From contig OY763929.1 of the NCBI GenBank assembly GCA_963667675.1, positions 814,358 through 878,357 on the forward strand: a DNA stretch of 64,000 nucleotides. The letters are read 5' to 3'. Below, piece after piece: positions 6,579 to 48,200 of this stretch; position 1 is the first letter of the stretch, and each line of letters starts with the position of its first letter. The stretch is from Dehalococcoidia bacterium (GTDB taxonomy: Bacteria > Chloroflexota > Dehalococcoidia > Lucifugimonadales > UBA3495). The position numbers and the translations under genes are program-made. Below the pieces are notes generated by a model, which saw nothing but the letters and a program-made list of their open reading frames with translations, ran no database searches and was not told the origin of the DNA.

Positions 6579-7991
6579 ATGAAAATGTACGTAAACGGGA
6601 AGTGGACGGAGGGGGAGCAATCTACTCCGGTGTTCAATCCATACGATCAAACGGTGGTGGACACTGTACCCAGGGCCACGGCAGCCGAGGTCGACCTAGC
6701 CATCACTAGCGCGGCGCGCGGCGCCGAGGTGATGGCCGCAACGACCGCCTATGAGCGCTACGCCATCTTGCGCCGGGCGGCGGACTTGATGGAGGAGCGA
6801 CTCGAAGACCTGGCTCGGACCATCACCCTGGAAGAGGGCAAGATAATCTTCGAGGCTCGGGTCGAGGTGCAGCGGGCCATTCAGACGATGACCCTGTCGG
6901 CTGAGGAGGCCAAGCGTCTTTACGGCGAGACGCTGCCGTTGGACTCCGCTCCCAGCGCCCAGGGCCAGTTCGGGTTCACCATCAGGGTGCCCGTGGGCGT
7001 GGTGGCGGCCATCGCTCCCTTCAACTTCCCCCTCAACCTGGTCTGTCACAAGATCGGCCCGGCCTTGGCCGCCGGCAACTCGGTGGTGCTCAAGCCGGCC
7101 GGGGACACCCCCCTCTCGGCCTTGAAGATGACCGAGGTGCTGCTAGACGCCGGCCTGCCAGAAGAGGGCATCCAGTGCGTCACCGGCTCCGGGGCAGAGA
7201 TCGGCGACATCCTGACGGGAGATCCCAGGGTCAGGAAGATAACCTTCACCGGCAGCATGGAGGTCGGCGACCGAATCTGCCGGAACGCCGGCATCAAGAA
7301 GGTGACGATGGAGCTGGGATCCAACAGCCCCTTGATCGTCATGTCCGACGCCGACCTGGACAAGGTAGCGGCGGCCACGGTGGCCGGCGGTTTTGCCAAC
7401 GCCGGCCAGGTATGCATTTCGACCCAGCGGGTACTGGCCGACCAACGGATTTACGCAGACTTCCTGGATGCCCTTGTGGCCCCCACGGAGGCCTTCGCCA
7501 CCGGGGACCCGCTGGCGGAAGGCACCAAGATGGGGCCCATGATCCGGGCCGGAGATGCCGAGCGAGTGGGCCAGTGGATCGGCGAGGCGGTGGAACAGGG
7601 CGCCCGCGTCGTCACCGGCGGCGACCACGAGGGGACGCTGCACGCGCCCACGGTGGTGGCCGACGCCACGCCCGACATGCTGATCTCGCGAGAGGAGTTG
7701 TTCGGCCCGGCGGTGGCGGTCAGCGCGTTCAACGACATCGACGAGGCCATTTCCATGGCCAACGACACCAGGTTCGGCCTGTCCGCGGGCATCTTCACCC
7801 AGAACATTGACTGGGCCATGCGCTTCGCCAGAGAGGTGCATTCGGGCAATCTCCACATCAACTCGTCGCCCCTGTGGCGGGTGGACATGATGCCCTACGG
7901 CGGCCTGAAGGACAGCGGCATGGGCAAGGAAGGCCCCAGCTACGCCGTGTCGGAGATGACCGAACTCAAGATGGTGGTGATGCACCTTTAG
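6579..7991 (+). CDS. NAD(P)-dependent aldehyde dehydrogenase family protein
   Basis: ELGSNSP glutamate motif and catalytic Cys context FANAGQVCIST. 470 aa, typical ALDH length. Confidence 0.9.
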   Translation: MKMYVNGKWTEGEQSTPVFNPYDQTVVDTVPRATAAEVDLAITSAARGAEVMAATTAYERYAILRRAADLMEERLEDLARTITLEEGKIIFEARVEVQRAIQTMTLSAEEAKRLYGETLPLDSAPSAQGQFGFTIRVPVGVVAAIAPFNFPLNLVCHKIGPALAAGNSVVLKPAGDTPLSALKMTEVLLDAGLPEEGIQCVTGSGAEIGDILTGDPRVRKITFTGSMEVGDRICRNAGIKKVTMELGSNSPLIVMSDADLDKVAAATVAGGFANAGQVCISTQRVLADQRIYADFLDALVAPTEAFATGDPLAEGTKMGPMIRAGDAERVGQWIGEAVEQGARVVTGGDHEGTLHAPTVVADATPDMLISREELFGPAVAVSAFNDIDEAISMANDTRFGLSAGIFTQNIDWAMRFAREVHSGNLHINSSPLWRVDMMPYGGLKDSGMGKEGPSYAVSEMTELKMVVMHL

Positions 7992-8050
7992 AGATTATCG
8001 GAGCCGACAGCGGCCTCACTAAGTGAACCAGCGGAGACACAATTAAAGAT

Positions 8051-8794
8051 ATGGAGATAGTTGCCGACCCGCCTCGCCGGGTGCTGGCGGTTACGCCCCA
8101 CCCCGACGATTGCGAGGGCGGTTGCGGCGGGGCCCTGGCCAGGTGGATTAAGGAAGCGGGCACCGAAGCCGTGGTGGTGCTGTGCACCAACGGCGACAAG
8201 GGCACCTCCGACCGGGACATGCGGCCGGAGCGGCTGGCCGCCATCCGCGAGCGCGAACAGCAGGAAGCCTCGGACGTTCTTGGCGTCAAGGAAGTGGTCT
8301 TTCTGTCTCATCCCGACGGCGGCCTGGAAGACACCATGTTGTTCCGCGGCCAGATCGTAAGGGAAATCCGCCGCCACAAGCCTGACGCGGTGGTCTGCAT
8401 CGACCCCTATCGGAGCCGCAGCCACACCCACCGGGACCACCGGATAAGCGGGCAGGTAACGGTGGACGCGGCGTTCACCTACGCCTGGAGCTACCTGCAC
8501 TTCCCGGAACAGATAACCGACGAGGGGCTGGAGCCTCACCAAGTAAGGGAAGCCTACCTATGGGGAGGCGAGGCCCCAAACGCCTACGTGGACATCGAAG
8601 ATTACGTGGACATGAAGGCGGAGTCCCTGGGCAAACACGCCAGCCAGATGAATTCCGACCCTATCAGGAGAAGGGAAATCATACGGGAATGGGCCGCCCG
8701 CCACGGCAAGGCGGTGGGACTGCACTACGCCGAGCAGTTCCGGCGGGTGCCGTTCGACCTGGGATCGCTGGCCTGCCGGCTGATGAACCTGTAG
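8051..8794 (+). CDS. PIG-L / LmbE family N-acetylglucosaminyl deacetylase
   Basis: VTPHPDDCEGGCGG zinc-binding motif and HTHRDH motif typical of the LmbE family. Confidence 0.85.
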   Translation: MEIVADPPRRVLAVTPHPDDCEGGCGGALARWIKEAGTEAVVVLCTNGDKGTSDRDMRPERLAAIREREQQEASDVLGVKEVVFLSHPDGGLEDTMLFRGQIVREIRRHKPDAVVCIDPYRSRSHTHRDHRISGQVTVDAAFTYAWSYLHFPEQITDEGLEPHQVREAYLWGGEAPNAYVDIEDYVDMKAESLGKHASQMNSDPIRRREIIREWAARHGKAVGLHYAEQFRRVPFDLGSLACRLMNL

Positions 8795-8807
8795 CCGCAG
8801 GCCGCGC

Positions 8808-9161
8808 CTACTCTGTCGCGGCCTCCCGGTAGCACTCGTCCGACTTGGCCGCCATGATGAAATCGTTGCGGTGCAGGTTGCGAATCTTGTGCGTCCACCA
8901 CGTGACCCTGACCCGGCCCCATTCGGTGGTCAGCCTGGGATGGTGGCCTTCCTCTTCGGCCAATTCGCCCACGGCCGCGGTAAAGCCCAGGGCTTGGCGG
9001 AAGTCGCTGAACTTGAATAGCTTGTCCAGCTTCTTTATGCCGTCCTCGGTAAGCAGGTCCCAATCGGGCACCTGCTGATGCAACTCTGATGCTTCCTGGT
9101 CGGTGACTGGGGGAGAGTCGCGGCGGCAGGCCACGCACTTTTCCCGGTTTAGCTGTTGCAT
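8808..9161 (-). CDS. phhB: 4a-hydroxytetrahydrobiopterin (pterin-4-alpha-carbinolamine) dehydratase
   Basis: 117 aa with EEEGHHPRL ... WWTH core characteristic of PCD/DCoH. Confidence 0.85.
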   Translation of the reverse strand: MQQLNREKCVACRRDSPPVTDQEASELHQQVPDWDLLTEDGIKKLDKLFKFSDFRQALGFTAAVGELAEEEGHHPRLTTEWGRVRVTWWTHKIRNLHRNDFIMAAKSDECYREAATE

Positions 9162-9272
9162 TTCGGCACTCCTAACCGTTACGGCCCCGCTCCGGTGGGT
9201 AAACCGACGCCCGGAACTTCTCTTGCAGGTTTCAATAAGGAAATTTTAGCATACGGGCGGACCTCTCCGGTC

Positions 9273-9302
9273 CTTGAGCAAGCCTGGACCTCTGGAGTAT
9301 AG
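9273..9302 (+). promoter_or_regulatory. candidate sigma-70-type promoter upstream of argH
   Basis: TTGAGC, 18-nt spacer, TATAGT, about 80 nt upstream of the argH ATG. Confidence 0.25.
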
Positions 9303-9380
9303 TTTGTGGGGGCAAATCGCCCAGTGCGGAATAGACGACGCCAGGGGCCCGGCCCTATTTGAAATCCGGCGAACAGCGCA

Positions 9381-10730
9381 ATGTCCGACCACAGTCAATA
9401 CACAGTGTCCATAGACTACGACCGCCGGTTGGCCCGCCAGGACATTGCCGGGTCCATAGCCCACGCCCGTATGCTGGCCAGGCAGGGGATCATCACCCAG
9501 GAGGACGCCGACCTGATCACCGAGGGACTGGCCGAGGTGGGCCGGGAGATAGAGGCAGGCGAATTCCCCTGGGACCCCGCCTTGGAAGACCTGCACATGA
9601 ACATCGAGAGCAGGCTGCAGACGCTGATAGGCGCCCCGGCGGGACGCCTGCACACCGCCCGCTCGCGCAACGACCAGATAGCCGTAGATATGCGGCTCTA
9701 CACCAAGGAGGTCATCGACGACACCGCGGCCAAGCTGCGCCGGGTGCAATCGGCCCTGGTCGAACTGGCGGAAAGGCACCGGGAAGCAATCATGCCCGGC
9801 TACACTCACTTGCAAAGGGCCCAACCGGTGCTGTTCGCCCACCACATGCTGGCCTACTTCCAGATGTTCCAGCGGGACATCCAGCGGTTTTCCGATTGCC
9901 GGCGTCGCGCCGACGTGCTCCCATTGGGCAGCGGCGCCCTGGCGGGAGTCTCCTACCCCACAGACAGGGAGTTCCTGGCCCGCGAACTGGGGTTCCAGGA
10001 AATCAGCGCCAACAGCATGGACGCGGTGTCGGACCGGGACTTCGTGTTGGAGTACCTGGCGGCGGCGGCCATCTGCGCTATGCACCTGTCGCGGCTGGCC
10101 GAGGAGATCGTCCTGTGGTCCAGCCGGGAATTCGGCTTCGTCGCGTTGAGCGAGGAGTTCACCACCGGCAGCAGCATCATGCCGCAGAAGCGAAACCCGG
10201 ACTTCGCCGAACTGGCCCGGGGCAAGACCGGGCGGGTGTACGGCAACCTGCTGGGACTGCTCACGGTGCTCAAGGGCCTGCCGCTAACGTATAACCGGGA
10301 CCTGCAGGAAGACAAAGAAGGGTTCTTCGACACCGTGGATACCCTCACGTCAACCCTCGAAGTCTTCCAGGGGATGCTGTCGGGGTTGACGTTGAACGAA
10401 GACCGGGTGACGGCATTGGCCGGCGAGAGCCAGGCGCTGGCCACCGACCTGGCGGACTACCTGGTGGGCAAGGGCGTCCCCTTCCGCGTGGCCCATGGCA
10501 TCGTCCGGGAGCTGTGCCGCTACTGCGATGACCAGAAAAAGGACCTAGCGGCGCTGGAACTCGACGAGTACCAGCGGTTTTCGCCGATGTTCGACCGGGA
10601 CGTGTACCAGATAACCGCCCAGTCGGCGACGGAGGCCCGGGACAACCCCGGCGGCACCGCGCCGGGACGGGTGGCGTCCGAACTCGCCCATGCCAGGGAA
10701 ATCTTGAATGCGGAGGCTGACGGTGGCTGA
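9381..10730 (+). CDS. argH: argininosuccinate lyase
   Basis: Fumarate-lyase signature GSSIMPQKRNPD. Full-length 449 aa. Confidence 0.95.
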   Translation: MSDHSQYTVSIDYDRRLARQDIAGSIAHARMLARQGIITQEDADLITEGLAEVGREIEAGEFPWDPALEDLHMNIESRLQTLIGAPAGRLHTARSRNDQIAVDMRLYTKEVIDDTAAKLRRVQSALVELAERHREAIMPGYTHLQRAQPVLFAHHMLAYFQMFQRDIQRFSDCRRRADVLPLGSGALAGVSYPTDREFLARELGFQEISANSMDAVSDRDFVLEYLAAAAICAMHLSRLAEEIVLWSSREFGFVALSEEFTTGSSIMPQKRNPDFAELARGKTGRVYGNLLGLLTVLKGLPLTYNRDLQEDKEGFFDTVDTLTSTLEVFQGMLSGLTLNEDRVTALAGESQALATDLADYLVGKGVPFRVAHGIVRELCRYCDDQKKDLAALELDEYQRFSPMFDRDVYQITAQSATEARDNPGGTAPGRVASELAHAREILNAEADGG

Positions 10731-14275: not shown

Positions 14276-14980
14276 TTACCTGCCTTTCGCTAACACGGTG
14301 TCGGCTATGGAGACAGCATCGACTCGAAATTTCTGAAACTGGTCAATATTTTTGTCAGTTATGCCGATCTGATATTCAACACCTCCACGGTGCTGCCTGC
14401 TTCGAGTTGGATATTCGTCAACCTCCGTGTTCGACAATACCCAATAGAGCAACCGGTCAACCCATACTCCAATGAACACAAAAACATCACAGGTGTCGAG
14501 CTTCAGTTGCTGAAAATTCATCCAAAACGGTGCACCTGAGTTGTAGTGTAGAGCCTTAGAGACCAACTCTCCTCGCACTTTCGTGTCTATGGCACGTGCC
14601 GCTTTGACTTCAACCTTCACAGTTTCCAACAGGAGATCATATTGCCCATCGTAGTTGGGATCTACTGTACGATCCGGCTTGCGAAAACGAGAGTCCAAAT
14701 CTCTCAAATGTTGTTCTCCCCATATTTGGCCGAAAATTCTGGGAGCTAAACCAAAGAGTCCCAGGTAACGGTTGTCTGATATGTATGTACTGCGAAGATG
14801 TTCGTACTCTGTGAAAGAAATAATCTTACGATCCATGAGAAAGGACAAGATGTATTCATATTCGTTAAACGGGAATACAGGAATCAGGCCTTCCAGCCTG
14901 GCCGACAATATATTACGGTCTTGGCAGGGCAGAGATGGAATCAACGTTTCTAGGTAGGCCCGAAGCTCCCGCTGGTCCAT
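14276..14980 (-). CDS. putative Type II restriction endonuclease (PD-(D/E)xK-like)
   Basis: 234-aa AT-rich ORF whose ATG overlaps the upstream methyltransferase stop (TAATG). Candidate catalytic motif YDLLLETVKVEVKAARA. No family recognised by eye. Confidence 0.5.
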   Translation of the reverse strand: MDQRELRAYLETLIPSLPCQDRNILSARLEGLIPVFPFNEYEYILSFLMDRKIISFTEYEHLRSTYISDNRYLGLFGLAPRIFGQIWGEQHLRDLDSRFRKPDRTVDPNYDGQYDLLLETVKVEVKAARAIDTKVRGELVSKALHYNSGAPFWMNFQQLKLDTCDVFVFIGVWVDRLLYWVLSNTEVDEYPTRSRQHRGGVEYQIGITDKNIDQFQKFRVDAVSIADTVLAKGR

Positions 14981-16011
14981 TAGTGCCGTATTAATTCAGG
15001 GAATGGGTTTCGCCATTGCCAGCCAGTCTTCCGGGTAGCTCTGAAGTGTTCAAGCCTCCTGATTGTCAACTCGGCTAATACGGGATCGTTGTCGCAAGTG
15101 TATATTTTTCTATCTAGGCGTTCCCCAGCCAACAAAGTAGTGCCAGAGTGCGCAAACATATCAAGGACTAAATGGCCGGAGTCGCTGCTAGATTCGATGA
15201 TTCTCTCGATCGCCTTGAGCGGTTTTTGCGCGTAACAGCCAGGAACGTTCTCCTCCATACGGTAGAAAACCTGCTGAATGTCAACCCATACATTCCCAGG
15301 CCTAATCGTATTTGACTTACTCCGTTCAAGGTTTTCAGTCAGCTTTCCATTGACTTCCTTATAGTAGCCTTTGAGTATCTTGGGAATGCCAGTGTAGACA
15401 ACATTGAAACCTGGTCTGCCACGAACGTAGTGCAATAATTCTTGCCGTACCCACATCCAGTTCTTTTGGGTTCCATAACCTCGTTGATTCCTCAACGTGA
15501 TTAGGTTTCTTGGCTGAATTTCAGGGAACTCCCTCATCAAAATCATGATATCGGGTAAAGGTTGGAATTGATCTCGATAGTCAGCACCAATCCAACAATA
15601 CAGGTGAGAATCTTCCTTCATGGCACTAATCGCGTTGGCAACCCAGGCGCGCGAAAAACTTAGATAATTCCCCAAGTTGGTTTTCGACAAGCTTGCAGAG
15701 TTCGCGTTGCCAACGACAACGTTATAAGGAGGATCGTTAACCACTAGGTCAGCCTTCTCGTTGCCGAGTAGGCGTTCCATATCACCAGCTTGTGTAGCAT
15801 CTAAAACGCCCACTCTATGCCCACGAACAGGGTCTTCCCAGACTTCCCCCTCATTTAAACGGCAATATTGCAAGAGGCGGCTACTTAATTCGAGGTCAAC
15901 GTCGAGCCTGCCCAACCTTTCAGAAGTAGAATGCTTCCCAGACGGTTTTGTTTCTGCCTCACTCACCGCTTGATGATCCGTGAATAATGTGCCCTGTCGG
16001 TTAAGCTTCAT
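14980..16011 (-). CDS. DNA methyltransferase, beta-class (N6-adenine or N4-cytosine)
   Basis: Motif IV VVNDPPYN precedes motif I DMFAHSGTTLLAG, which is the beta permutation. AT-rich relative to flanks. Confidence 0.85.
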   Translation of the reverse strand: MKLNRQGTLFTDHQAVSEAETKPSGKHSTSERLGRLDVDLELSSRLLQYCRLNEGEVWEDPVRGHRVGVLDATQAGDMERLLGNEKADLVVNDPPYNVVVGNANSASLSKTNLGNYLSFSRAWVANAISAMKEDSHLYCWIGADYRDQFQPLPDIMILMREFPEIQPRNLITLRNQRGYGTQKNWMWVRQELLHYVRGRPGFNVVYTGIPKILKGYYKEVNGKLTENLERSKSNTIRPGNVWVDIQQVFYRMEENVPGCYAQKPLKAIERIIESSSDSGHLVLDMFAHSGTTLLAGERLDRKIYTCDNDPVLAELTIRRLEHFRATRKTGWQWRNPFPELIRH

Positions 16012-16047: not shown

Positions 16048-18837
16048 CTATTCCATGTCGCCCCAGGTGGGGCCCCACTTGGCGTCGACTTTCAGGGACA
16101 CGTCCAGGGCATGGGCGGCGGGCATCTCTTCCAGGGCCAACTCGTGCAGCATGTCCAATTCGTCCTGGGGGACCTCGAACACCAACTCGTCATGCACCTG
16201 CAGCAGCATCTTGGTGCGCATTTTCTCCCGCTCCAGGCGGTCCTGGACTTTAATCATGGCCAGCTTCATTATGTCCGCGGCGGTGCCTTGAATGGGCATG
16301 TTGATTGCCATCCGCTCCGCCGCCCCGCGCACGTTGAAGCTGGATGCGTTGATGTCAGGCACGTAGCGGCGGCGTCCCATCACCGTCTCCACGAACTGGC
16401 ATTCCCGGGTCTTGGCTTTGACGCCCTCCAGGTATTCGCTTATGCCGGGGTACTTGGCGAAATAGGTCTCGATGAAATGGATTCCCTCTTCACGGCTGAA
16501 CCCCGTCTGCTGGGATATGCCGTGGGCGGACAGGCCGTAAATCACGCCAAAGTTGAGCACCTTGGCGATGCGCCGCATGTCCGAGTTCACCTGGTCGATG
16601 GGTGTCTCGAACATCAGCGACGCCGTCGACGAGTGAATGTCCTCCCCCCGTTTGAACGCTTCCAGCAGTCCCTCGTCCCGTGACAAATGGGCCAGCACGC
16701 GCAACTCGATCTGGGAGTAGTCGGCGGAGAAGAGCAGCCAGTCAGACCCGTCGGCGACGAAAGCCTTGCGCACCTGGCGGCCCAGTTCGGTGCGGATTGG
16801 GATGTTCTGCAGGTTGGGGTCGCTGCTGGAGATGCGGCCGGTGGCGGATCCCGTTTGGTTGTAGCTGGTGTGTATGCGCCCGGTGACGGGGTTCACCATC
16901 TCGGGCAGGGCGTCGACGTAGGTGGACTTGAGCTTGGATATCTGCCGGTATTCCAGGATCTGGTCCACAACCGGGTGCAGCCCCCGGAGCATCTCCAAGG
17001 AGTTGGCGTCGGTGGAATAGCCGGTCTTGGTGCGCTTGGTCTTGGGCAGGCCCAACTCCTGGAAGAGCACCTGGCTCAGTTGCTGCGGCGAGTTTATGTT
17101 GACGGCGTGGCCGATGCTGCGGTACAGGTCCGTCTCCACCTGCTGCAACTGCTGGTTTAGGTCCCGCGACATCTCGTGCAAAGCGCCGGCGTCAAGCTTG
17201 ATGCCGTGACGCTGCATGGTCACCAGCACCGGCGTCAGGGGCATCTCCATCTCATTCAGCAGCGAGGTCAAACCCTCGTTGGCCAGTTGGCCCTCCAACT
17301 CCCGGCGCAGGCGGCCGGTCATGTCGGCATCGGCGGCGGCGTAGGGCAGGGCCGATTCGATGGATACCTGGTCGAAGGTAAGCTGCTTGCGCCCCGTTCC
17401 GATGAGTTGGGAGATGGGAGTCATCTCTAGGCCCAAGACGTCCAGTGACAGGTTCTTGAGTCCAAGGGCGTTCCTGCCCAGCAAGTGGGCGGCAATCATG
17501 GTGTCGAAGTCGACGTTGCGGCATTCAATGCCGTATCCGGCCAGCACCGCCATATCATAGTTCGCGTTGTGAGCGCACTTAGCCAAGTCCGGCGACTCCA
17601 GCAATGGCCTTAATTGAGCCAGTACTTCCTCCGCGGGAAGTTGAGCGCCCTCGTTGTGGCCCACGGGAACGTACCAGGCCCTGCCGGGAGCGGTGGCGAA
17701 GCTTAACCCGACGAGGTTGGCCTGCATGGGGTCCAGCGAAGTGGTCTCGGTGTCGAAAGCGAAAGAACCCGATTCGTGCAGCGCGGCCAGCATGGACTCT
17801 AACTGCTGTTGTGTCTGCACCACCTGGTAGTCCGCGTCGGTGGAGGGGCCTGCAAGTCCGGGTTGGGCGCCGCCGTCGCCGGCGGGAGCAGAACCGGGCG
17901 CGGCTGCCGGGAGCCGCTGTATCACGCTGAAGAATTCCAACTCCGTCAGGAAGTCCACCACCGAGCGCCGGTCGTACTGGCCGAAGCGGCAGGCTTCCAG
18001 GTCCAACTCCACGGGGCTATGTTGGTCGATGGTGGTAAGTATCCGGTTCTCGAATGCCCGGTCACGGTGCTCGGCCAGGGACTCCTTGACGCTGGGCGGT
18101 TTGACCTCGTCCAGGTGCTCGTAGATGCCCTCCAGGTTGTGGAAGTCGGTCAGCAGGGAGACGGCCCGCTTCTCTCCGACCTTGGGTACGCCGGGTATGT
18201 TGTCGGAAGAGTCCCCCAGCAGCGCCTTGAAGTCCGGCTGCTGGGCGGAGGTGAGCCCGGAGTAGCGTTCGGCCAGCGCGGCCTCGTCGTAGACCTTGCG
18301 GTCCTGGATGCTGTAAGAAAGGTCCACGCGCACCCTGGGCGTGATCAACTGAAAGGTGTCCCGGTCGCCGGTCAGGATTACGGTGTCGACGCCTCGCTCC
18401 TCGGCCAGCCGGCTGATGGTGCCTATGACGTCGTCGGCCTCGTAGCCGTCCAACTCGAAAATGGGCACGTTGAAGGCCTGCATCAACTGCTTGACGCGGC
18501 CGAACTGTGGCCTCAACTCCGGAGGCGTTTCGGCCCGCTGGGCCTTGTACTCCTCGAACCGCTCGTGCCTGAACGTAGGAGCGGACGTATCGAAGGCAAT
18601 GCCGCAGTAGGTGGGATTCCAGTCCTGCAACGCCCGCAGGAATACGTTGGTGAACCCGTAGACGCCGGTTACGTCTTCGCCGGTGGAGCGGACGGTGAGG
18701 TGCCTCTGGACGGAAATGGCGTGAAACGAACGGTGCACCATGGCGTGCCCGTCCATCAGCATCAGCAAGGGCGGCCTGTCTTGCTGGTTTTCCTGGTCGA
18801 ACGAAAGCTGGGATTGGAAGGTGTTTTCCGGGGCCAT
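16048..18837 (-). CDS. polA: DNA polymerase I
   Basis: 5-prime nuclease N-terminus, 3-5 exo-like domain, and polymerase motifs A (LFSADYSQIELRVLAH), B (RRIAKVLNFGVIYG) and C (LQVHDELVFE). ATG 18837 (MAPENTF) chosen; the ORF opens at 18903. Confidence 0.95.
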   Translation of the reverse strand: MAPENTFQSQLSFDQENQQDRPPLLMLMDGHAMVHRSFHAISVQRHLTVRSTGEDVTGVYGFTNVFLRALQDWNPTYCGIAFDTSAPTFRHERFEEYKAQRAETPPELRPQFGRVKQLMQAFNVPIFELDGYEADDVIGTISRLAEERGVDTVILTGDRDTFQLITPRVRVDLSYSIQDRKVYDEAALAERYSGLTSAQQPDFKALLGDSSDNIPGVPKVGEKRAVSLLTDFHNLEGIYEHLDEVKPPSVKESLAEHRDRAFENRILTTIDQHSPVELDLEACRFGQYDRRSVVDFLTELEFFSVIQRLPAAAPGSAPAGDGGAQPGLAGPSTDADYQVVQTQQQLESMLAALHESGSFAFDTETTSLDPMQANLVGLSFATAPGRAWYVPVGHNEGAQLPAEEVLAQLRPLLESPDLAKCAHNANYDMAVLAGYGIECRNVDFDTMIAAHLLGRNALGLKNLSLDVLGLEMTPISQLIGTGRKQLTFDQVSIESALPYAAADADMTGRLRRELEGQLANEGLTSLLNEMEMPLTPVLVTMQRHGIKLDAGALHEMSRDLNQQLQQVETDLYRSIGHAVNINSPQQLSQVLFQELGLPKTKRTKTGYSTDANSLEMLRGLHPVVDQILEYRQISKLKSTYVDALPEMVNPVTGRIHTSYNQTGSATGRISSSDPNLQNIPIRTELGRQVRKAFVADGSDWLLFSADYSQIELRVLAHLSRDEGLLEAFKRGEDIHSSTASLMFETPIDQVNSDMRRIAKVLNFGVIYGLSAHGISQQTGFSREEGIHFIETYFAKYPGISEYLEGVKAKTRECQFVETVMGRRRYVPDINASSFNVRGAAERMAINMPIQGTAADIMKLAMIKVQDRLEREKMRTKMLLQVHDELVFEVPQDELDMLHELALEEMPAAHALDVSLKVDAKWGPTWGDME

Positions 18838-19082
18838 AGCGGCACCTCGACGGCTGCGGGCGGGTCTCCACTTGCCTGTGGAGATGGTGGCCGCATTATA
18901 CACCAGGCCCCCCTCTGCGGGTTGGGACTCCAGCTACTGACATTTCTCCGTTGACGGCCCAGGTAGTCGGTGCATAAACTGGTGCCGTAGGTAGCTCAAT
19001 GCGCAGGTTCCTCGCCATACACGGCTGTTGCCCTAGCGCCATATTGGGAGAGTTTGAGAGGCTTTGATAGGGGATCCGAAAT

Positions 19083-41789: not shown

Positions 41790-41884
41790 GCCCTTCGAGA
41801 GCCTCATGGTGAACGGGTGGGGGGCGCTGATGATCCTTGACGCCGGCTGTCCGTTCGCCCTGAGGGAAATTGAAGGGCGAACGG
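41788..41884. repeat. hairpin repeats (families B and A)
   Basis: ggcccttcgagagcctcatggtgaacgggtgggg, then ccgttcgccctgagggaaattgaagggcgaacgg (11-bp perfect stem). Confidence 0.55.
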
Positions 41885-41929: not shown

Positions 41930-42241
41930 CTACCGCTGAAAAATAGTCCGGCGCAGCAATTCGTTTAGCCGGGTCTGCCAGCCGGGGCCGGTGGACCGGA
42001 GATGGGCTGTTATGTCCGCGTCCAGCCTCAGTGTTATTCGCTCTTTGACCGGAGCCTTCTGTTTGCCGCGCCTCCGTAGTGAATACTCGACCAACTCAGG
42101 ATGTACCTCCGCGGCGGGCCGGGCGCGGGCGAACCAATCGTCGTCCAACTCCGGCGCGTCGGGGTCCAGGGCGATGCCCCTGTTGATCTCCAACTCTTCC
42201 TCAGGAGTTGGGCTGATGTGAGTGGGCTTAAGCTTGGGCAT
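41930..42241 (-). CDS. brnA: BrnA-family antitoxin
   Basis: KERITLRLDADITAHLRSTGPGWQTRLNELLRR is the BrnA C-terminal pattern. ATG 42241 overlaps the toxin end by 14 nt. Confidence 0.75.
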   Translation of the reverse strand: MPKLKPTHISPTPEEELEINRGIALDPDAPELDDDWFARARPAAEVHPELVEYSLRRRGKQKAPVKERITLRLDADITAHLRSTGPGWQTRLNELLRRTIFQR

Positions 42242-42491
42242 ATTGCCTAATCTCCCTGGAATTGGCCTTGCGCAGGCTGATAATGCGGCACTTGCCGCCC
42301 CGCATGGTATAGACCACGTAGTGCAGCCGGTCGCCGATGTATCCCAAGGCAACATAGCGGGCTTCTCCGCGCCGGGGACTTGGCGAGATGGCGGCGGTCT
42401 GCCACTCGAATATCTCCATGTCCAAGAAGTCGACGCCGTTATGCTTCGCTAGGTTGTCTTGGCGCTTGGCCTCATCCCATTCGTACTCGAT
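42228..42491 (-). CDS. brnT: BrnT-family toxin homologue with no canonical start codon in front of its conserved N-terminus
   Basis: The open frame back to the stop at 42513-42515 encodes YCLYNKGIEYEWDEAKRQDNLAKHNGVDF...RIISLRKANSREIRQY. The YEWDEAK..N..KHGV motif lies upstream of the first ATG/GTG/TTG (TTG 42425). The 5-prime end is set at the ATC codon (42491) and is uncertain. Confidence 0.55.
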   Translation of the reverse strand: MEYEWDEAKRQDNLAKHNGVDFLDMEIFEWQTAAISPSPRRGEARYVALGYIGDRLHYVVYTMRGGKCRIISLRKANSREIRQYAQA

Positions 42492-44118: not shown

Positions 44119-44383
44119 GTCATTCCCGCGGAGGCGGGAATCTCGCGCCCTGCCCCCATCCGTTCGCCCTGAGGGAAATCGAAGGGCCTCCAACAGTCCA
44201 CTGTAGGGGTAGGCCTTGTGCCTACCCTAGCCCCGGCTGTAGAGGGTGCCTACCAGGGACGCCCCACCCGTCATCCTCGCGCAGGCGAGAATCTAAGACC
44301 CTTGGCGGCAGCCCGTCTTGAGCAAGCAATCCCCAACCGTTCTCAGTCCCTCATCCGCTCATGGTGAGCTTGTCGAACCATGG
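44119..44383. repeat. cluster of hairpin repeats (families C, A, D, C, B)
   Basis: agtcattcccgcggaggcgggaatctcg; ccgttcgccctgagggaaatcgaagggc; ctgtaggggtaggccttgtgcctaccctag; ccgtcatcctcgcgcaggcgagaatctaag; cgctcatggtgagcttgtcgaaccatgg. Confidence 0.6.
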
Positions 44384-44575: not shown

Positions 44576-45880
44576 ATGAAGCCAAAGGCTAAGCAGGACT
44601 ACTTGGTCGTGCAGAAGGGGGCCAAGCCGGCGAAGCGAGACGGCTGGCGCGAGGTGCCATTCAGTGAAGCAGTGCAAATCAACCCTGCGGTACAACTTGA
44701 ACGTGGCGCGGTTTACCCCTTCGTAGATATGGCAGCGGTGACTCCCGATTCAAGAAGCACTAGCTCTACTGGGGAGCGAGGCTTCAAGGGCAGCGGCTCC
44801 AGGTTCCAAAGCGGCGACACGCTCATGGCTCGCATTACTCCATGCTTGGAGAACGGGAAAATCGCCCGCTATCAGGCCATGGGAGACAAACAGAAGGCTC
44901 ACGGCTCAACTGAGTTCATAGTCATTCGTGGCCGTTCAGGCGTTACGGATAACGACTTCGCCTACTATCTAACTCAGTGGGAAGAAGTCCGCAACTACGC
45001 TATCGGCCAAATGACAGGCACTTCGGGGCGCCAAAGGGTCCCTGTGGATTGCCTAGACCATTTGGAAATCCCCCTCCCACCCCTCCCCGAACAGCAGGCC
45101 ATCGCCCACATCCTCGGCACGCTGGACGACAAAATAGAGCTAAACCGCCGCATGAACCAGACCCTTGAGGAAATGGCCCGCGCCATCTTCAAGTCCTGGT
45201 TCGTAGACTTTGACCCCGTCCGCGCCAAAATGGAAGGCCGCGACGCCGGCCTGCCGCCCGACCTCGCCGCCCTCTTCCCCGACCGCCTAGTGGACTCGGA
45301 GCTTGGGCAAATCCCGGAGGGGTGGGCAGTGAAACCGTTGGGGGAAGTGATAGAGATTCACGATAATAAGCGCATTCCCTTGAACAATCGTCAGCGCGCA
45401 GAGCGGCAGGGTGCTTATCCTTACTATGGCGCCGCTGGCATCATGGATTACGTTGATGACTATCTCTTTGATGGTGTCTACGTGCTGGTCGGAGAAGATG
45501 GCTCAGTTGTTAATGACGAGGGTTATCCAGTAGTGCAATATGTCTGGGGGCAGTTTTGGGTCAACAACCATGCTCATGTACTTCGCGCTAAGCATGGTGT
45601 TGGCCTAGAGCAACTCTATTTGTTCCTCAAACAAACCAACATCGTGCCTTATGTGACAGGAGCAGTTCAACCAAAGCTCAGTCAGACGAATCTTTGCTCC
45701 GTTCCCTTTTCGCTTCCAAGTCAAGCTGTTAGTTTAGCCTTTGCAGATATAGCGGGCTCACTATTTCAACAAATACGCCGCATAGCCGATGAATCGCACA
45801 CTTTGGCCGCGCAGCGGGATACGCTACTGCCGAGGTTGGTGAGCGGGGAAATATTCTTACCGTGCCTAAGAGGGGATTAA
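44576..45880 (+). CDS. hsdS: Type I restriction-modification specificity subunit
   Basis: Two target-recognition domains separated by the conserved LPPLPEQQAIAHILGTLDDKIELNRRMNQTLEEMARAIFKSWFVDF region, with a C-terminal conserved region (LAAQRDTLLPRLVSGE). Confidence 0.85.
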   Translation: MKPKAKQDYLVVQKGAKPAKRDGWREVPFSEAVQINPAVQLERGAVYPFVDMAAVTPDSRSTSSTGERGFKGSGSRFQSGDTLMARITPCLENGKIARYQAMGDKQKAHGSTEFIVIRGRSGVTDNDFAYYLTQWEEVRNYAIGQMTGTSGRQRVPVDCLDHLEIPLPPLPEQQAIAHILGTLDDKIELNRRMNQTLEEMARAIFKSWFVDFDPVRAKMEGRDAGLPPDLAALFPDRLVDSELGQIPEGWAVKPLGEVIEIHDNKRIPLNNRQRAERQGAYPYYGAAGIMDYVDDYLFDGVYVLVGEDGSVVNDEGYPVVQYVWGQFWVNNHAHVLRAKHGVGLEQLYLFLKQTNIVPYVTGAVQPKLSQTNLCSVPFSLPSQAVSLAFADIAGSLFQQIRRIADESHTLAAQRDTLLPRLVSGEIFLPCLRGD

Positions 45881-47838
45881 TGCTTACCGACACGCTTACA
45901 AGTCTTGCAATCCTGAAGGTGAACATTGATCAAGGTAAAGATTATCTTGACTACCTCCGGCCTTTCATTCTTCAGGTCCTTGTAGAAGAGAAACCAGACG
46001 AAATCTCAGATACCGTCATTAGCAACCTGATAAGAGCGCGATTTGGATTGGAAATCCCGGACGGCACTGTTCATATAGTCTTGAGACGCTTATCTAGGGC
46101 ATATCCAATCAAGAGAGAACGCGGTGTATATCGTATAACAGGCCACATACCTGACCCTGGTATATCAGCCAAGCAAGTGGAAGCAAAGCGCCATGTTGAC
46201 GCAGTTGTAAATGGGCTGATGGAATTCTCATCTGGCTCGTTGAAGCCCTTCTCTGACAGAGACCGTACTGAAGCATCGATACGCACGTTTCTGGCTAATT
46301 TCAATGTATCGTGTTTGCGTGCCTACCGGAGGGGAACAGCAATTCCAGACCTCACCGACCAACAAGATACCGATATCGTACTGGTCAGTAAGTACGCCAT
46401 ACATCTCCAGAAAACCAATCCAGAGAGGTTTGACAGTTTTATGATCATGGTGCAAGGGCACATGCTCGCTAATGCCCTGCTTTGCCCTGACCTAAGTCAT
46501 GTGTCCGACCACTATAAGCAAGTAGCATTTTATTTAGATACGCCATTGCTTGTGCAACTCCTCGGTCTTGAAGGTAATGCCAAGCAAGATGCTGTTACAC
46601 AGCTACTTCGCTTGTTAAAGAACCTGGATGGTAAGGTACAAGCATTTTCTCATTCTCGCGATGAGTTGAGAGGGGTAATCCAAGCCGCCGCGATGAACTT
46701 GGAAATCCCTGATGGGAAAAGCCCCGTAGTCATAGAAGCGCGAAGGTCAGGGACTACAAAGTCCGACCTGCTTCTAGTTACAGAGCAAGTAGATAACCAC
46801 CTTAACAAGGCTGGCATAGAGATAACTACCACTCCTAGATATACTGAGTCTTACCAGATAGACGAACAAACATTCGAAGATATCCTCGCTGACGAGGTTT
46901 CCTACTCCAATCCTCGCGCTATGCTGAATGACATTAACTCTGTCCGAAGCATCTACGTTCTACGGAAGAACCTATCACCACCTTCACTAGAGAAATCCCG
47001 AGCTGTTCTGGTTACGAGCAACACCGGGTTCGCTGATGCGGCATGGAGGTATGAGCAGCAATTCCAGAACAATAGAGGCCCTAGAGAGGTATCAACCGTT
47101 ATAGGCGATCTCACCTTAGCTAACTTAGCGTGGCTAAAGGCGCCATTGGGAGCTACAACTCTCCCCAGCAGCGAAATAATTGCCTTGGCATACGCTGCTC
47201 TTGAACCTTCAAGGACGTTGCTAGACAAATATTTGGCAGAAATTGACCGACTGGAGCAACAAGGTGATATCTCCCCAAGAGACCATCAATTGCTCCGAAG
47301 TAGTCCAATGGCGTATGACGAGTTGGTTGCCCTAACTCTAGGCGACGAGACAACTTTGACCGAGGAAACGGTTAAAGAGACTCTGGACCGGATTTCTAGA
47401 GAGATCAAGGAAGAGGAAAGTGGAATGCTGGTCGCAGAGCAGAGTGCGCATCGGATAACCCAAGAGAAACTGAAAGAATCGCTTCAATTCAACAGAGACG
47501 TCCGGGAGCGGATTTACTGGCAATGCCACAGGAGGGCCGCGTTGTGGGCTAATGTAGCCGCTGTTCTAATTGGGGTCCTATTGATTGGCGATTTAGTAGC
47601 TGGCTTCATGGTATGGATATTTAATGGAACGTATATTGCGCTAGCTGTTGCTTCTCCCATTGCAATCGTCGCTGGGATATTGACACTGGTAAGCCGATGG
47701 TTTGGGATTTCGGTTATGGAGTTCCGTAGACGTGTACGAGAGTGGCTCTTTGATAGATTTCGTAAGCAGCAATCAAACACCACTGGCATTGAACTGAGGG
47801 GCGATACAGCGATACAGAATGAACAAATCAGAGAATGA
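45880..47838 (+). CDS. uncharacterised 652-aa protein with C-terminal transmembrane hairpin, coupled to hsdS
   Basis: ATG 45880 overlaps the hsdS stop (TAATG). AT-rich. Long uninterrupted ORF with protein-like composition. Two hydrophobic helices near the C-terminus. No family recognised by eye. Confidence 0.7.
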   Translation: MLTDTLTSLAILKVNIDQGKDYLDYLRPFILQVLVEEKPDEISDTVISNLIRARFGLEIPDGTVHIVLRRLSRAYPIKRERGVYRITGHIPDPGISAKQVEAKRHVDAVVNGLMEFSSGSLKPFSDRDRTEASIRTFLANFNVSCLRAYRRGTAIPDLTDQQDTDIVLVSKYAIHLQKTNPERFDSFMIMVQGHMLANALLCPDLSHVSDHYKQVAFYLDTPLLVQLLGLEGNAKQDAVTQLLRLLKNLDGKVQAFSHSRDELRGVIQAAAMNLEIPDGKSPVVIEARRSGTTKSDLLLVTEQVDNHLNKAGIEITTTPRYTESYQIDEQTFEDILADEVSYSNPRAMLNDINSVRSIYVLRKNLSPPSLEKSRAVLVTSNTGFADAAWRYEQQFQNNRGPREVSTVIGDLTLANLAWLKAPLGATTLPSSEIIALAYAALEPSRTLLDKYLAEIDRLEQQGDISPRDHQLLRSSPMAYDELVALTLGDETTLTEETVKETLDRISREIKEEESGMLVAEQSAHRITQEKLKESLQFNRDVRERIYWQCHRRAALWANVAAVLIGVLLIGDLVAGFMVWIFNGTYIALAVASPIAIVAGILTLVSRWFGISVMEFRRRVREWLFDRFRKQQSNTTGIELRGDTAIQNEQIRE

Positions 47839-47841
47839 CGC

Positions 47842-47920
47842 ATGACTGCCCTCACTGAAGCGGACGTTGAGCATGCAACCCTAGGTTGGCAGGTGGCGCG
47901 GCTGGTATATCGCGCCGGGC
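47842..47920 (+). pseudogene. possible 5-prime remnant of Type I restriction subunit hsdR
   Basis: An ATG 3 nt after the preceding stop encodes MTALTEADVEHATLGW, resembling the common HsdR N-terminal pattern (TE..VE.AAL.WL..LGY). From 47921 the frame runs into hairpin repeats and stops at 48016-48018. The evidence is only ~15 residues. Confidence 0.3.
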
Positions 47921-48200
47921 GTAGGGGCGGTTCGCGAACCGCCCCTGCACCGGAATCATGCAGGATCCTTGATGTGTCACCAATTGGACCGCCGCCACAA
48001 CCCGGCCATCCATCATAATTGCCCAACCCGTAGGGGCAACCCTTGTGGTTGCCCTCGCCTCGGTCAGGGCGCCCACAAGGGGCGCCCCTACGTTGGGCGC
48101 TGCCCCATGGCCTGATACCAGGAAGCGGCCAACCCTGCCACACCCCCGTTCGCCCTGAGGGAAATCGAAGGGCTTGTCGAATCACTCGAACGGACGAACC
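47921..48200. repeat. cluster of hairpin repeats (families D, D, D, A, B-like)
   Basis: gtaggggcggttcgcgaaccgcccctgcac; cgtaggggcaacccttgtggttgccctcgcc; cagggcgcccacaaggggcgcccctacg; ccgttcgccctgagggaaatcgaagggc; cttgtcgaatcactcgaacgg. Confidence 0.6.

Follow-up and report, generated by a model that had tools for sequence, protein, structure and literature searches.

We analysed a stretch of 64,000 nucleotides from a Dehalococcoidia bacterium (contig OY763929.1 of assembly GCA_963667675.1, in the following "the window") and describe one of its genes, here called gene X, which is coupled to hsdS, the gene for the specificity subunit of a type I restriction-modification (R-M) system. Gene X (45880-47838; all features of the window lie on the + strand unless noted) is an uninterrupted open reading frame (ORF) for a protein of 652 amino acids. 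The layout shown by structure prediction and sequence analysis is a cytoplasmic winged helix-turn-helix (wHTH) with a helical region, a divergent PIN-like domain with the residues D-E-D(+N), a stalk helix and a hairpin of two transmembrane (TM) helices. We propose that X is an autonomous PIN-like nuclease anchored in the inner membrane that serves as a single-gene anti-phage module of the abortive-infection type. We infer this function from genomic context and fold and put its probability at roughly 0.5.

The PIN-like core

The central domain of X (residues ~212-425, 46513-47154) was assigned from AlphaFold (AF2) models, from Foldseek comparisons with the PDB and with the predicted viral structures of BFVD, and from sub-threshold Pfam matches. 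Foldseek searches with the full-length model were dominated by long, spurious alignments to O-methyltransferases, which were rejected; therefore, residues 205-450 were modelled separately with 48 diverse relatives. The resulting domain model has a predicted local distance difference test score (pLDDT) of 90.7 and a predicted template modelling score (pTM) of 0.88. It contains five strands (216-219, 252-256, 314-316, 375-379 and 407-409). Helical segments are inserted behind strand 2 and, as a pair of helices, behind strand 3. All high-probability matches of this model in the PDB are PIN proteins, namely the HARP RNase P 7og5 (probability 1.00, TM-score 0.60 on the target), PAE2754 (1v8o, probability 0.99), the M. 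tuberculosis VapBC complex 7vwo (probability 0.98) and additionally HARP 8kd9 and AF1683 (1w8i). Sequence identity to the structural neighbours VapC and HARP is 11-17%. The top match in BFVD is a protein of 366 amino acids named "PIN like domain" (E 1e-3, probability 1.00), followed by FEN-1, XRN and DUF1308 matches, all PIN-like, with much weaker E-values and low probability. When 49 aligned members of the family were scanned singly against Pfam, the PIN clan gave the most sub-threshold matches of any group, eight from four families (PIN three, PIN_12 two with a best value of 1.4e-3, PIN_3 two and PIN_8 one). The PIN-like core that had been suspected in a first-pass annotation of this DNA is thus borne out by a confident model, by the top matches in both structure collections and by the near-matches in Pfam. 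We class the core as PIN-like on the basis of predicted fold and motif, short of membership in a sequence family.

The same annotation had called the core possibly degenerate, with its last acidic residue replaced; the conservation pattern shows that it is not. Five residues, D220, H258, E262, D351 and N381, are invariant in 129 of 129 representatives that are 33-56% identical to gene X over the domain, and R362, E371, T379, W418 and K420 are nearly invariant in the same set. The first putative catalytic acid, D220 (FYLD-T, codon 46537-46539), stands at the end of strand 1, the second, E262 (SHSRDEL, codon 46663-46665), in the helix after strand 2, where H258 is likewise invariant within the close family, and the third, D351 (DINSVRS, codon 46930-46932), where the helix preceding strand 4 begins. 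The positions of the catalytic set D-E-D of VapC toxins relative to secondary structure match those of D220, E262 and D351, which in alignment and model appear to occupy the places of the three PIN catalytic acids. The segment T379-S-N381 (LVTSN, codon of N381 47020-47022) comes after strand 4, and the fourth PIN position is thus an invariant, non-acidic asparagine. The last motif of the Shigella VapC is of the "VTNN" type, which "VTSN" of gene X resembles, so that the asparagine fits a known type of motif and need not be read as a loss. Even a Klebsiella plasmid homologue with only 22% identity retains D, E, D and N. Since these putative catalytic residues are invariant, it is probably the nuclease and not the TM hairpin that forms the conserved active part of the protein.

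Domains flanking the core

In the full-length AF2 model (overall pLDDT 69), residues 27-86 (45958-46137) form helices 27-37, 44-55 and 61-74 followed by a hairpin of strands 77-80 and 83-86, all with pLDDT 74-85. The segment GTVHIVLRRLSRAYPIKRERGVYRITG (residues 62-88, DNA 46063-46143) comprises the third helix and the wing. Locally, the full-length model matches the MarR protein 3cdh (probability 0.96) and the IclR-type protein 2g7u (probability 0.77) in Foldseek, and a few members of the family have sub-threshold Pfam matches to HTH_12 (9e-5 in one member) and Penicillinase_R. The wHTH-like N-terminus that had been guessed from motifs is supported by each of these results, and with its three-helix bundle and wing we regard it as a predicted winged helix. 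It is followed by a conserved helical domain (residues 95-200, 46162-46479), delimited by alignment and AF2, which carries the motifs CLRAYLRGTAIP and GHMLANALLCPDL, invariant in the alignment of homologues.

On the C-terminal side of the core, AF2 predicts one long helix (495-580), of which residues 495-552 (47362-47535) form a stalk that continues into the first TM helix. The stalk is charged, poorly conserved and variable in length among homologues. In two of them (P0019 and P0027) a tandem duplication of ~40 amino acids lies just before TM1 (alignment A1, columns ~560-600), which shows that the length of the stalk is apparently under loose constraint. In the best heptad register, 10 of 17 a/d positions are hydrophobic. 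What had been suggested earlier as a coiled coil is a single long stalk helix in the model; its heptad character is only modest, and a coiled coil is possible. The TM hairpin (TM1 residues 553-581, TM2 residues 585-608; 47536-47703) is defined by hydropathy and conservation. With a threshold of Kyte-Doolittle >1.6 over a 19-residue window, only residues 551-613 pass, in two segments with peaks of 2.44 and 2.50, and the maximum before residue ~540 is 1.23. A C-terminal hydrophobic block is present in all 128 full-length representatives, with two segments in 112 and one in 16 according to a crude rule. The block has a median length of 58 amino acids, and the net charge of the 15 flanking residues is +3.0 before and +1.9 after it. 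By the positive-inside rule, these positively charged flanks would place both ends and all soluble domains in the cytoplasm, consistent with a predicted N-in/C-in topology of the hairpin. TM2 is followed by a basic helix (RWFGISVMEFRRRVREWLFDRFRKQ..., 47704-47799; AF2 helix 612-635), which was also apparent in the charge analysis. The two hydropathy peaks, the basic flanks and the presence of the block in every relative checked support the C-terminal TM hairpin of the first-pass annotation. In the alignment, stalk and TM sequences are the least conserved part of the protein.

Reading frame and family

The ATG of gene X shares one nucleotide with the stop codon of hsdS (TAATG) and is preceded by the Shine-Dalgarno sequence AGAGGGG. 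An in-frame GTG lies upstream at 45862; the alignment of homologues begins at the ATG at 45880. hsdS (44576-45880) encodes a type I specificity subunit of 434 amino acids with two target recognition domains (Pfam Methylase_S 5.8e-30, PADLOC Specificity_I 1e-108). The TAATG overlap and the precise hsdS junctions in relatives uphold the coupling of gene X to hsdS that had been read from the sequence at first. All peptides quoted at that time were found in the translation, among them AFYLDTPLLVQLLG (residues 216-229, DNA 46525-46566), RAVLVTSNTGF (residues 374-384, DNA 46999-47031) and DKYLAEIDRLEQQGD (residues 449-463).

More than 1,140 relatives of gene X were found in a word-indexed search. 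The best 120 of them are nearly all 630-680 amino acids long and 50-59% identical to gene X, and every source name among these 120 is "hypothetical protein". A profile search that was exhaustive over 1.84 billion cluster representatives gave 4,136 clusters at 50% identity with E ≤ 1e-3 and 1,851 with E ≤ 1e-30. The family is present in more than 15 phyla. Given thousands of relatives with a common length of ~640 amino acids and a common architecture, a spurious ORF, which had been considered in the first-pass annotation, is rejected, and the alignments identify gene X as a genuine family member. A scan of one genome per species yielded 80 loci, from Gammaproteobacteria, Chloroflexota, Nitrospirota, Planctomycetota, Acidobacteriota, Gemmatimonadota, Bdellovibrionales, Spirochaetia, Verrucomicrobiota and Bifidobacteriaceae among others; cultured hosts include Pseudomonas, Methylovulum and Microbulbifer. 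The distribution is patchy, with homologues in only scattered genomes of many phyla.

No model in Pfam, NCBIfam or PADLOC covers the family when searched with the whole protein. Sequence and profile searches of the PDB gave no relative of gene X, only chance matches to histone H4, an ABC transporter and prefoldin with E > 0.07. No match was found in the phage GenBank collection, and IMG/VR contains just two loci with relatives; this near-absence from phages is neutral for the function proposed here. No description of the family was found in the libraries or the literature searched. X is best classed as a member of the PIN-like superfamily with a new architecture; defence-type nuclease cargo of R-M operons is already known.

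Genomic context of the relatives

Four homologues that were looked up individually comprise three in hsdM ... hsdS-X-hsdR operons and one solitary copy. Among the 80 loci, 60 are well flanked, with no less than 3 kb of sequence before the gene and 4 kb after it. In 24 of these, X lies in a type I context with the order hsdM-hsdS-X-hsdR, and in 36 (60%) it is solitary, without an R-M gene within 3-4 kb. The neighbours of the 36 solitary copies include no recurrent partner gene, just small lineage-specific synteny. Where X follows hsdS, its start overlaps the hsdS stop or lies within 10 nucleotides of it (24 of 31 loci), and its stop overlaps the hsdR start (ATGA) in seven of the nine cases with a placeable start. 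The HsdR proteins linked to X belong to one family with 39-83% identity.

On a neighbour-joining tree of 72 tips, at least 15 changes between the embedded and the solitary state are needed. In 16 complete operons, pairwise identities of HsdR and HsdM are strongly correlated (rho 0.89); the corresponding values are -0.10 for X and HsdR and -0.19 for X and HsdM, by which co-evolution of X with either subunit is rejected. X thus shows neither the co-variation nor the constant presence in the operon that a core subunit of a type I enzyme would show. Because of the many solitary loci, the repeated switches of context and the lack of co-variation, we regard X as autonomous. These data show that X behaves as a cassette that has been lodged repeatedly, with translational coupling, in the slot between hsdS and hsdR.

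This slot is shared with other genes. In other loci, the cargo between X and a full-length hsdR includes GmrSD-like, RhuM/Fic, reverse-transcriptase, Schlafen-AlbA_2/HATPase_c_4, DUF6602, DEAD-helicase and AAA_21 (AbiEii-like) proteins. Short 5' fragments of hsdR separate successive cargo genes and the full-length hsdR in six loci (L024, L034, L036, L038, L060 and L072). This pattern suggests that recombination at the conserved 5' end of hsdR brings cassettes in or swaps them. DarTG2 has been found between hsdS and hsdR, and the slot has been described as a likely recombination hotspot (PMC12255303); "guilt by embedding" has been used to find defence genes (bioRxiv 10.1101/2024.01.29.577857). 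The classical case of embedding is PrrC in its type IC locus (PMC12707154). In general terms, PIN-like genes that are coupled to subunits of type I R-M systems and have no antitoxin have also been noted (PMC5499597). The interval between hsdM and hsdS carries cargo as well. It holds a DUF2442/DUF4160 pair in L001 (6119-6657) and a Schlafen-AlbA_2/HATPase_c_4 protein in L004 (6001-7743). In L003, an NTase_sub_bind protein (7922-8353) is followed by an hsdS with N-terminal Polbeta/NTP_transf_2 matches (8346-10001), a pair that is HEPN-MNT-like by our reading.

Solitary distant homologues with 22-24% identity occur on resistance plasmids flanked by insertion sequences (IS). The copy on the Klebsiella plasmid pKA1-2 (L091, 4707-6674) retains D/E/D/N and two TM helices; the copy on an E. 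faecium plasmid (L090, 6004-7818) has no hairpin, abuts IS16 and is probably truncated. Solitary copies in Pseudomonas stand beside a gene for a TraG-type coupling protein or a mercuric reductase (mer) gene. X occurs on plasmids and on integrative and conjugative elements (ICEs). In two further solitary loci, X follows nrdA-nrdB in the same direction after a gap of 150-200 nucleotides (L073, 3420-9950; L083, 3225-9920), and in a third a co-directional X stands 150-200 nucleotides after another class of ribonucleotide reductase (RNR), with polA next (L059, 5674-9896).

The decayed island in the window

In the window itself, the GC content falls to 0.56 and 0.49 in two 2-kb bins over hsdS and X, compared with ~0.62 in the rest. 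Apart from a remnant of hsdR, no HsdM or HsdR homologue was found across the 64 kb. The remnant (47842-47898) starts three bases past the stop codon of X with the ORF MTALTEADVEHATLGWQVA..., keeps ~20 codons of the hsdR 5' end and then breaks into GC-rich palindromic repeats. Its assignment was made with tblastn (61-75% identity to HsdR residues 1-25, over the first 16-25 residues) and with a hidden Markov model of HsdR N-termini (E 8.9e-6). The locus is a horizontally acquired type I operon in which hsdM has been lost and hsdR nearly completely lost, and hsdS and X remain intact. Without hsdM and with only ~20 codons of hsdR left, X together with hsdS is an orphan remnant. A similar state is found in locus L008, where hsdS and X are likewise kept without hsdR. 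Because the island is compositionally young, the intactness of X is no proof of selection in this host.

GC-rich palindromes at 47918-47951 and 48029-48092 occupy the place of the lost hsdR. A 28-nucleotide repeat occurs upstream (44160-44187) and in an identical copy downstream (48146-48173) of the island. The two copies were considered as ends of a mobile element, and this was set aside on account of a third copy at 41851-41878, which marks a dispersed repeat; none of the three copies is expected by chance. Rfam gave no match over 40-52 kb, and promoter and terminator scans remained at chance level. Near the island, an ORF of 141 amino acids (41930-42355, - strand) matches BrnA_antitoxin (Pfam 1.5e-23), which suggests a remnant of a BrnTA-type toxin-antitoxin system. 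A second low-GC island (14276-16011, - strand, GC 0.487) carries an ORF of 343 amino acids with a DPPY motif, similar to DNA methyltransferases, and an abutting ORF of 234 amino acids, with polA (16048-18903) adjoining; the two ORFs probably represent a small type II R-M system.

Discussion

In the mechanism that we envisage for X as a membrane-anchored anti-phage nuclease, the N-terminal and helical regions would keep the protein inactive in uninfected cells. An infection cue, either a nucleic acid or a conserved factor, might be sensed by the wHTH and helical part and free the PIN site, which would then cut tRNA, rRNA or mRNA at the membrane and stop translation. RNA is the presumed substrate because VapC and HARP are the nearest structures. 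The stalk and the TM hairpin would tether X, would probably allow it to oligomerise and may also perturb the membrane. From the genomic context, the membrane-targeting abortive-infection role that the first-pass annotation had brought up is plausible. A more elaborate version, which we consider rather unlikely, would join the roles of a PrrC-type RNase and a RonA-type membrane toxin in one polypeptide stationed at the membrane. Beside a type I enzyme, the wHTH/helical head of X would then detect that restriction has failed or been blocked, or that phage nucleic acid has come in, and the response would be RNA cleavage, possibly together with opening of a CorA/MCU-like pore by stalk and hairpin.

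Several observations speak against an anti-phage nuclease. The Foldseek E-values of the top matches of the domain model range from 1e-3 to 4e-2, and none is stronger than 1e-3. No Pfam PIN model reaches threshold for any of the 49 members, gene X itself has no Pfam hit, and the profile search of the PDB brought up no PIN protein. When the domain alignment was compared by hhalign with two VapC proteins of related loci that Pfam had confirmed, the outcome was negative (probability 0.06%), in a weak test with a template of only two sequences (effective number of sequences, Neff, 1.6) and large inserts in X. PADLOC, which holds validated defence families, gave only a weak LeoBC match (E 0.007). 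An identity as high as ~50% across phyla is not usual in a sensor whose targets, phage proteins, evolve fast. Finally, several solitary copies have ordinary chromosomal surroundings, with ribonucleotide reductase genes directly upstream of X in three gammaproteobacteria and housekeeping genes around it in L002, which could reflect a non-defence cellular role.

In its core, X resembles the VapC-like group of PIN proteins, especially DUF4935/PIN_12 and PIN_8 (PMC5499597). Shared are the five-strand alpha/beta core, T-x-N after strand 4 and acids at three places, namely behind strand 1, within the helix that follows strand 2 and within the helix that precedes strand 4. X also has two inserts that Matelska et al. 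(2017, PMC5499597) describe for DUF4935, one long and helical behind strand 2 and the other made of two helices behind strand 3. However, DUF4935 proteins have only ~350 amino acids and are described without membrane helices (PMC5499597), whereas X has an additional N-terminal wHTH and helical region of ~200 amino acids and the C-terminal stalk and TM hairpin. VapC toxins and HARP are the best structural neighbours of X in the PDB, and this likeness suggests, by analogy, that X may cleave RNA in a metal-dependent manner. In contrast to both, X has neither an antitoxin partner nor the dodecameric context of HARP; a small VapBC-type antitoxin gene is not recurrent among the neighbours in the 36 solitary loci or in the operons examined. 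DarTG2, GmrSD, reverse transcriptases, Schlafen-like proteins, RhuM/Fic and the AbiEii-like ATPase occupy the slot of X, often adjoin it, and are candidate or proven defence genes. They are unrelated proteins; X consists of one gene, whose product brings its own membrane anchor.

The tight coupling of X to hsdS and hsdR, the single family of HsdR proteins linked to it and a slot of the same kind as that of prrC (PMC12707154) would also fit a guard in the style of PrrC or Ronin. Such an X would be held inactive on HsdMS or HsdR, be freed when Ocr, ArdA or Stp-like inhibitors block the enzyme, and kill by its RNase, its TM hairpin or both. PrrC of the EcoprrI type IC locus is, like X, an RNase-type gene product embedded in a type I operon, and its concept is a second-line, abortive defence (PMC12707154). 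Ronin consists of hsdMS and the TM toxin RonA without hsdR (bioRxiv 10.1101/2023.04.06.535777), and the hsdS-X pairs without hsdR in the window and in L008 recall this R-M-linked system of programmed cell death with a membrane-helix protein tightly linked to hsdS. The differences are nevertheless considerable. PrrC is a soluble protein that combines an ABC-ATPase with an anticodon-nuclease domain. It is almost exclusively R-M-embedded (bioRxiv 10.1101/2024.01.29.577857), whereas X has a PIN-like core and a membrane anchor and stands alone in 60% of the well-flanked loci, also in its distant plasmid homologues; only the slot is in common. PADLOC, Pfam and NCBIfam searches gave no match in X to the ABC-type ATPase or anticodon-nuclease domains of PrrC and RloC, and PADLOC and NCBIfam revealed no homology of X to PrrC or RonA. 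RonA is a single-TM protein of 61 amino acids that is always linked to hsdMS, whereas X has 652 amino acids and a nuclease core, and most embedded copies of X do have hsdR. Because hsdM is missing, the locus in the window cannot supply an HsdMS complex, and neither the absence of co-variation with HsdR and HsdM nor the 15 or more gains and losses of context fit a guard. We therefore hold this alternative to be unlikely, if still deserving serious attention. The layout of stalk, TM1, short loop, TM2 and basic helix, which is conserved in every member, raises the further question of whether the hairpin is the effector, forming an oligomeric, depolarising pore like those of 2TM/4TM proteins of cyclic-oligonucleotide-based anti-phage signalling (CBASS), RonA or CorA/MCU-type channels, with the PIN-like domain just a nucleic-acid sensor. 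Weak Pfam matches to membrane modules recur (DUF2207_C in 20 of 35 members, MCU in six, S_4TM in two), and TM toxins in R-M loci have precedent. On the other hand, it is D-E-D-N that is absolutely invariant, a signature of catalysis, and not the TM and stalk part, and the hairpin is missing from one natural plasmid copy, albeit one that abuts an IS and is probably truncated. We consider a pore effector with a mere sensor domain quite unlikely.

A non-toxic accessory or housekeeping role, for instance as a membrane tether or regulator of the type I enzyme or as an RNA-processing nuclease, appears improbable to us. EcoKI is reportedly associated with the inner membrane, and the translational coupling within the operon, the unusual conservation across phyla and the core neighbourhoods of some solitary copies (nrdAB-X in L073 and L083, RNR-X-polA in L059) would agree with such a role. 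Against it speak the patchy, horizontally shuffled distribution, the low-GC island in the window, the plasmid and ICE copies, the lack of co-evolution with R-M subunits and a slot that is common to bona fide defence cargo. PIN domains are the commonest type II toxins, and X could in principle be a selfish addiction module, in which an antitoxin-like wHTH head is fused to a VapC-like PIN toxin and stabilises islands and plasmids. The plasmid-borne, IS-flanked copies and the antitoxin-free PIN-like genes already noted beside type I R-M subunits (PMC5499597) are in line with this; however, no locus has a separate labile antitoxin gene, a protein of 650 amino acids with a TM hairpin is unlike VapBC, and the hhalign comparison with VapC was negative, so that we regard an addiction module as very improbable. 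That gene X is merely a frame in decay within a dead R-M island is hardly credible, and a spurious frame is refuted. The surrounding R-M system is clearly decayed, and the low GC content indicates recent acquisition, so that intactness alone proves no selection, but gene X has its full length, a Shine-Dalgarno sequence and a coupled start and carries every residue and motif that is invariant in this family of more than 4,000 clusters.

In this genome, X marks a decayed, horizontally acquired R-M island. With its precise junctions and without co-evolution with the enzyme, the X family is a clean system for studying how cassettes are exchanged and wired into R-M operons. If our proposal of a membrane-anchored anti-phage nuclease is true, thousands of related proteins in most bacterial phyla would receive a family name and a function that can be tested, and a membrane-anchored PIN nuclease would join PrrC, DarTG2 and GmrSD among the effectors of the hsdS-hsdR slot.

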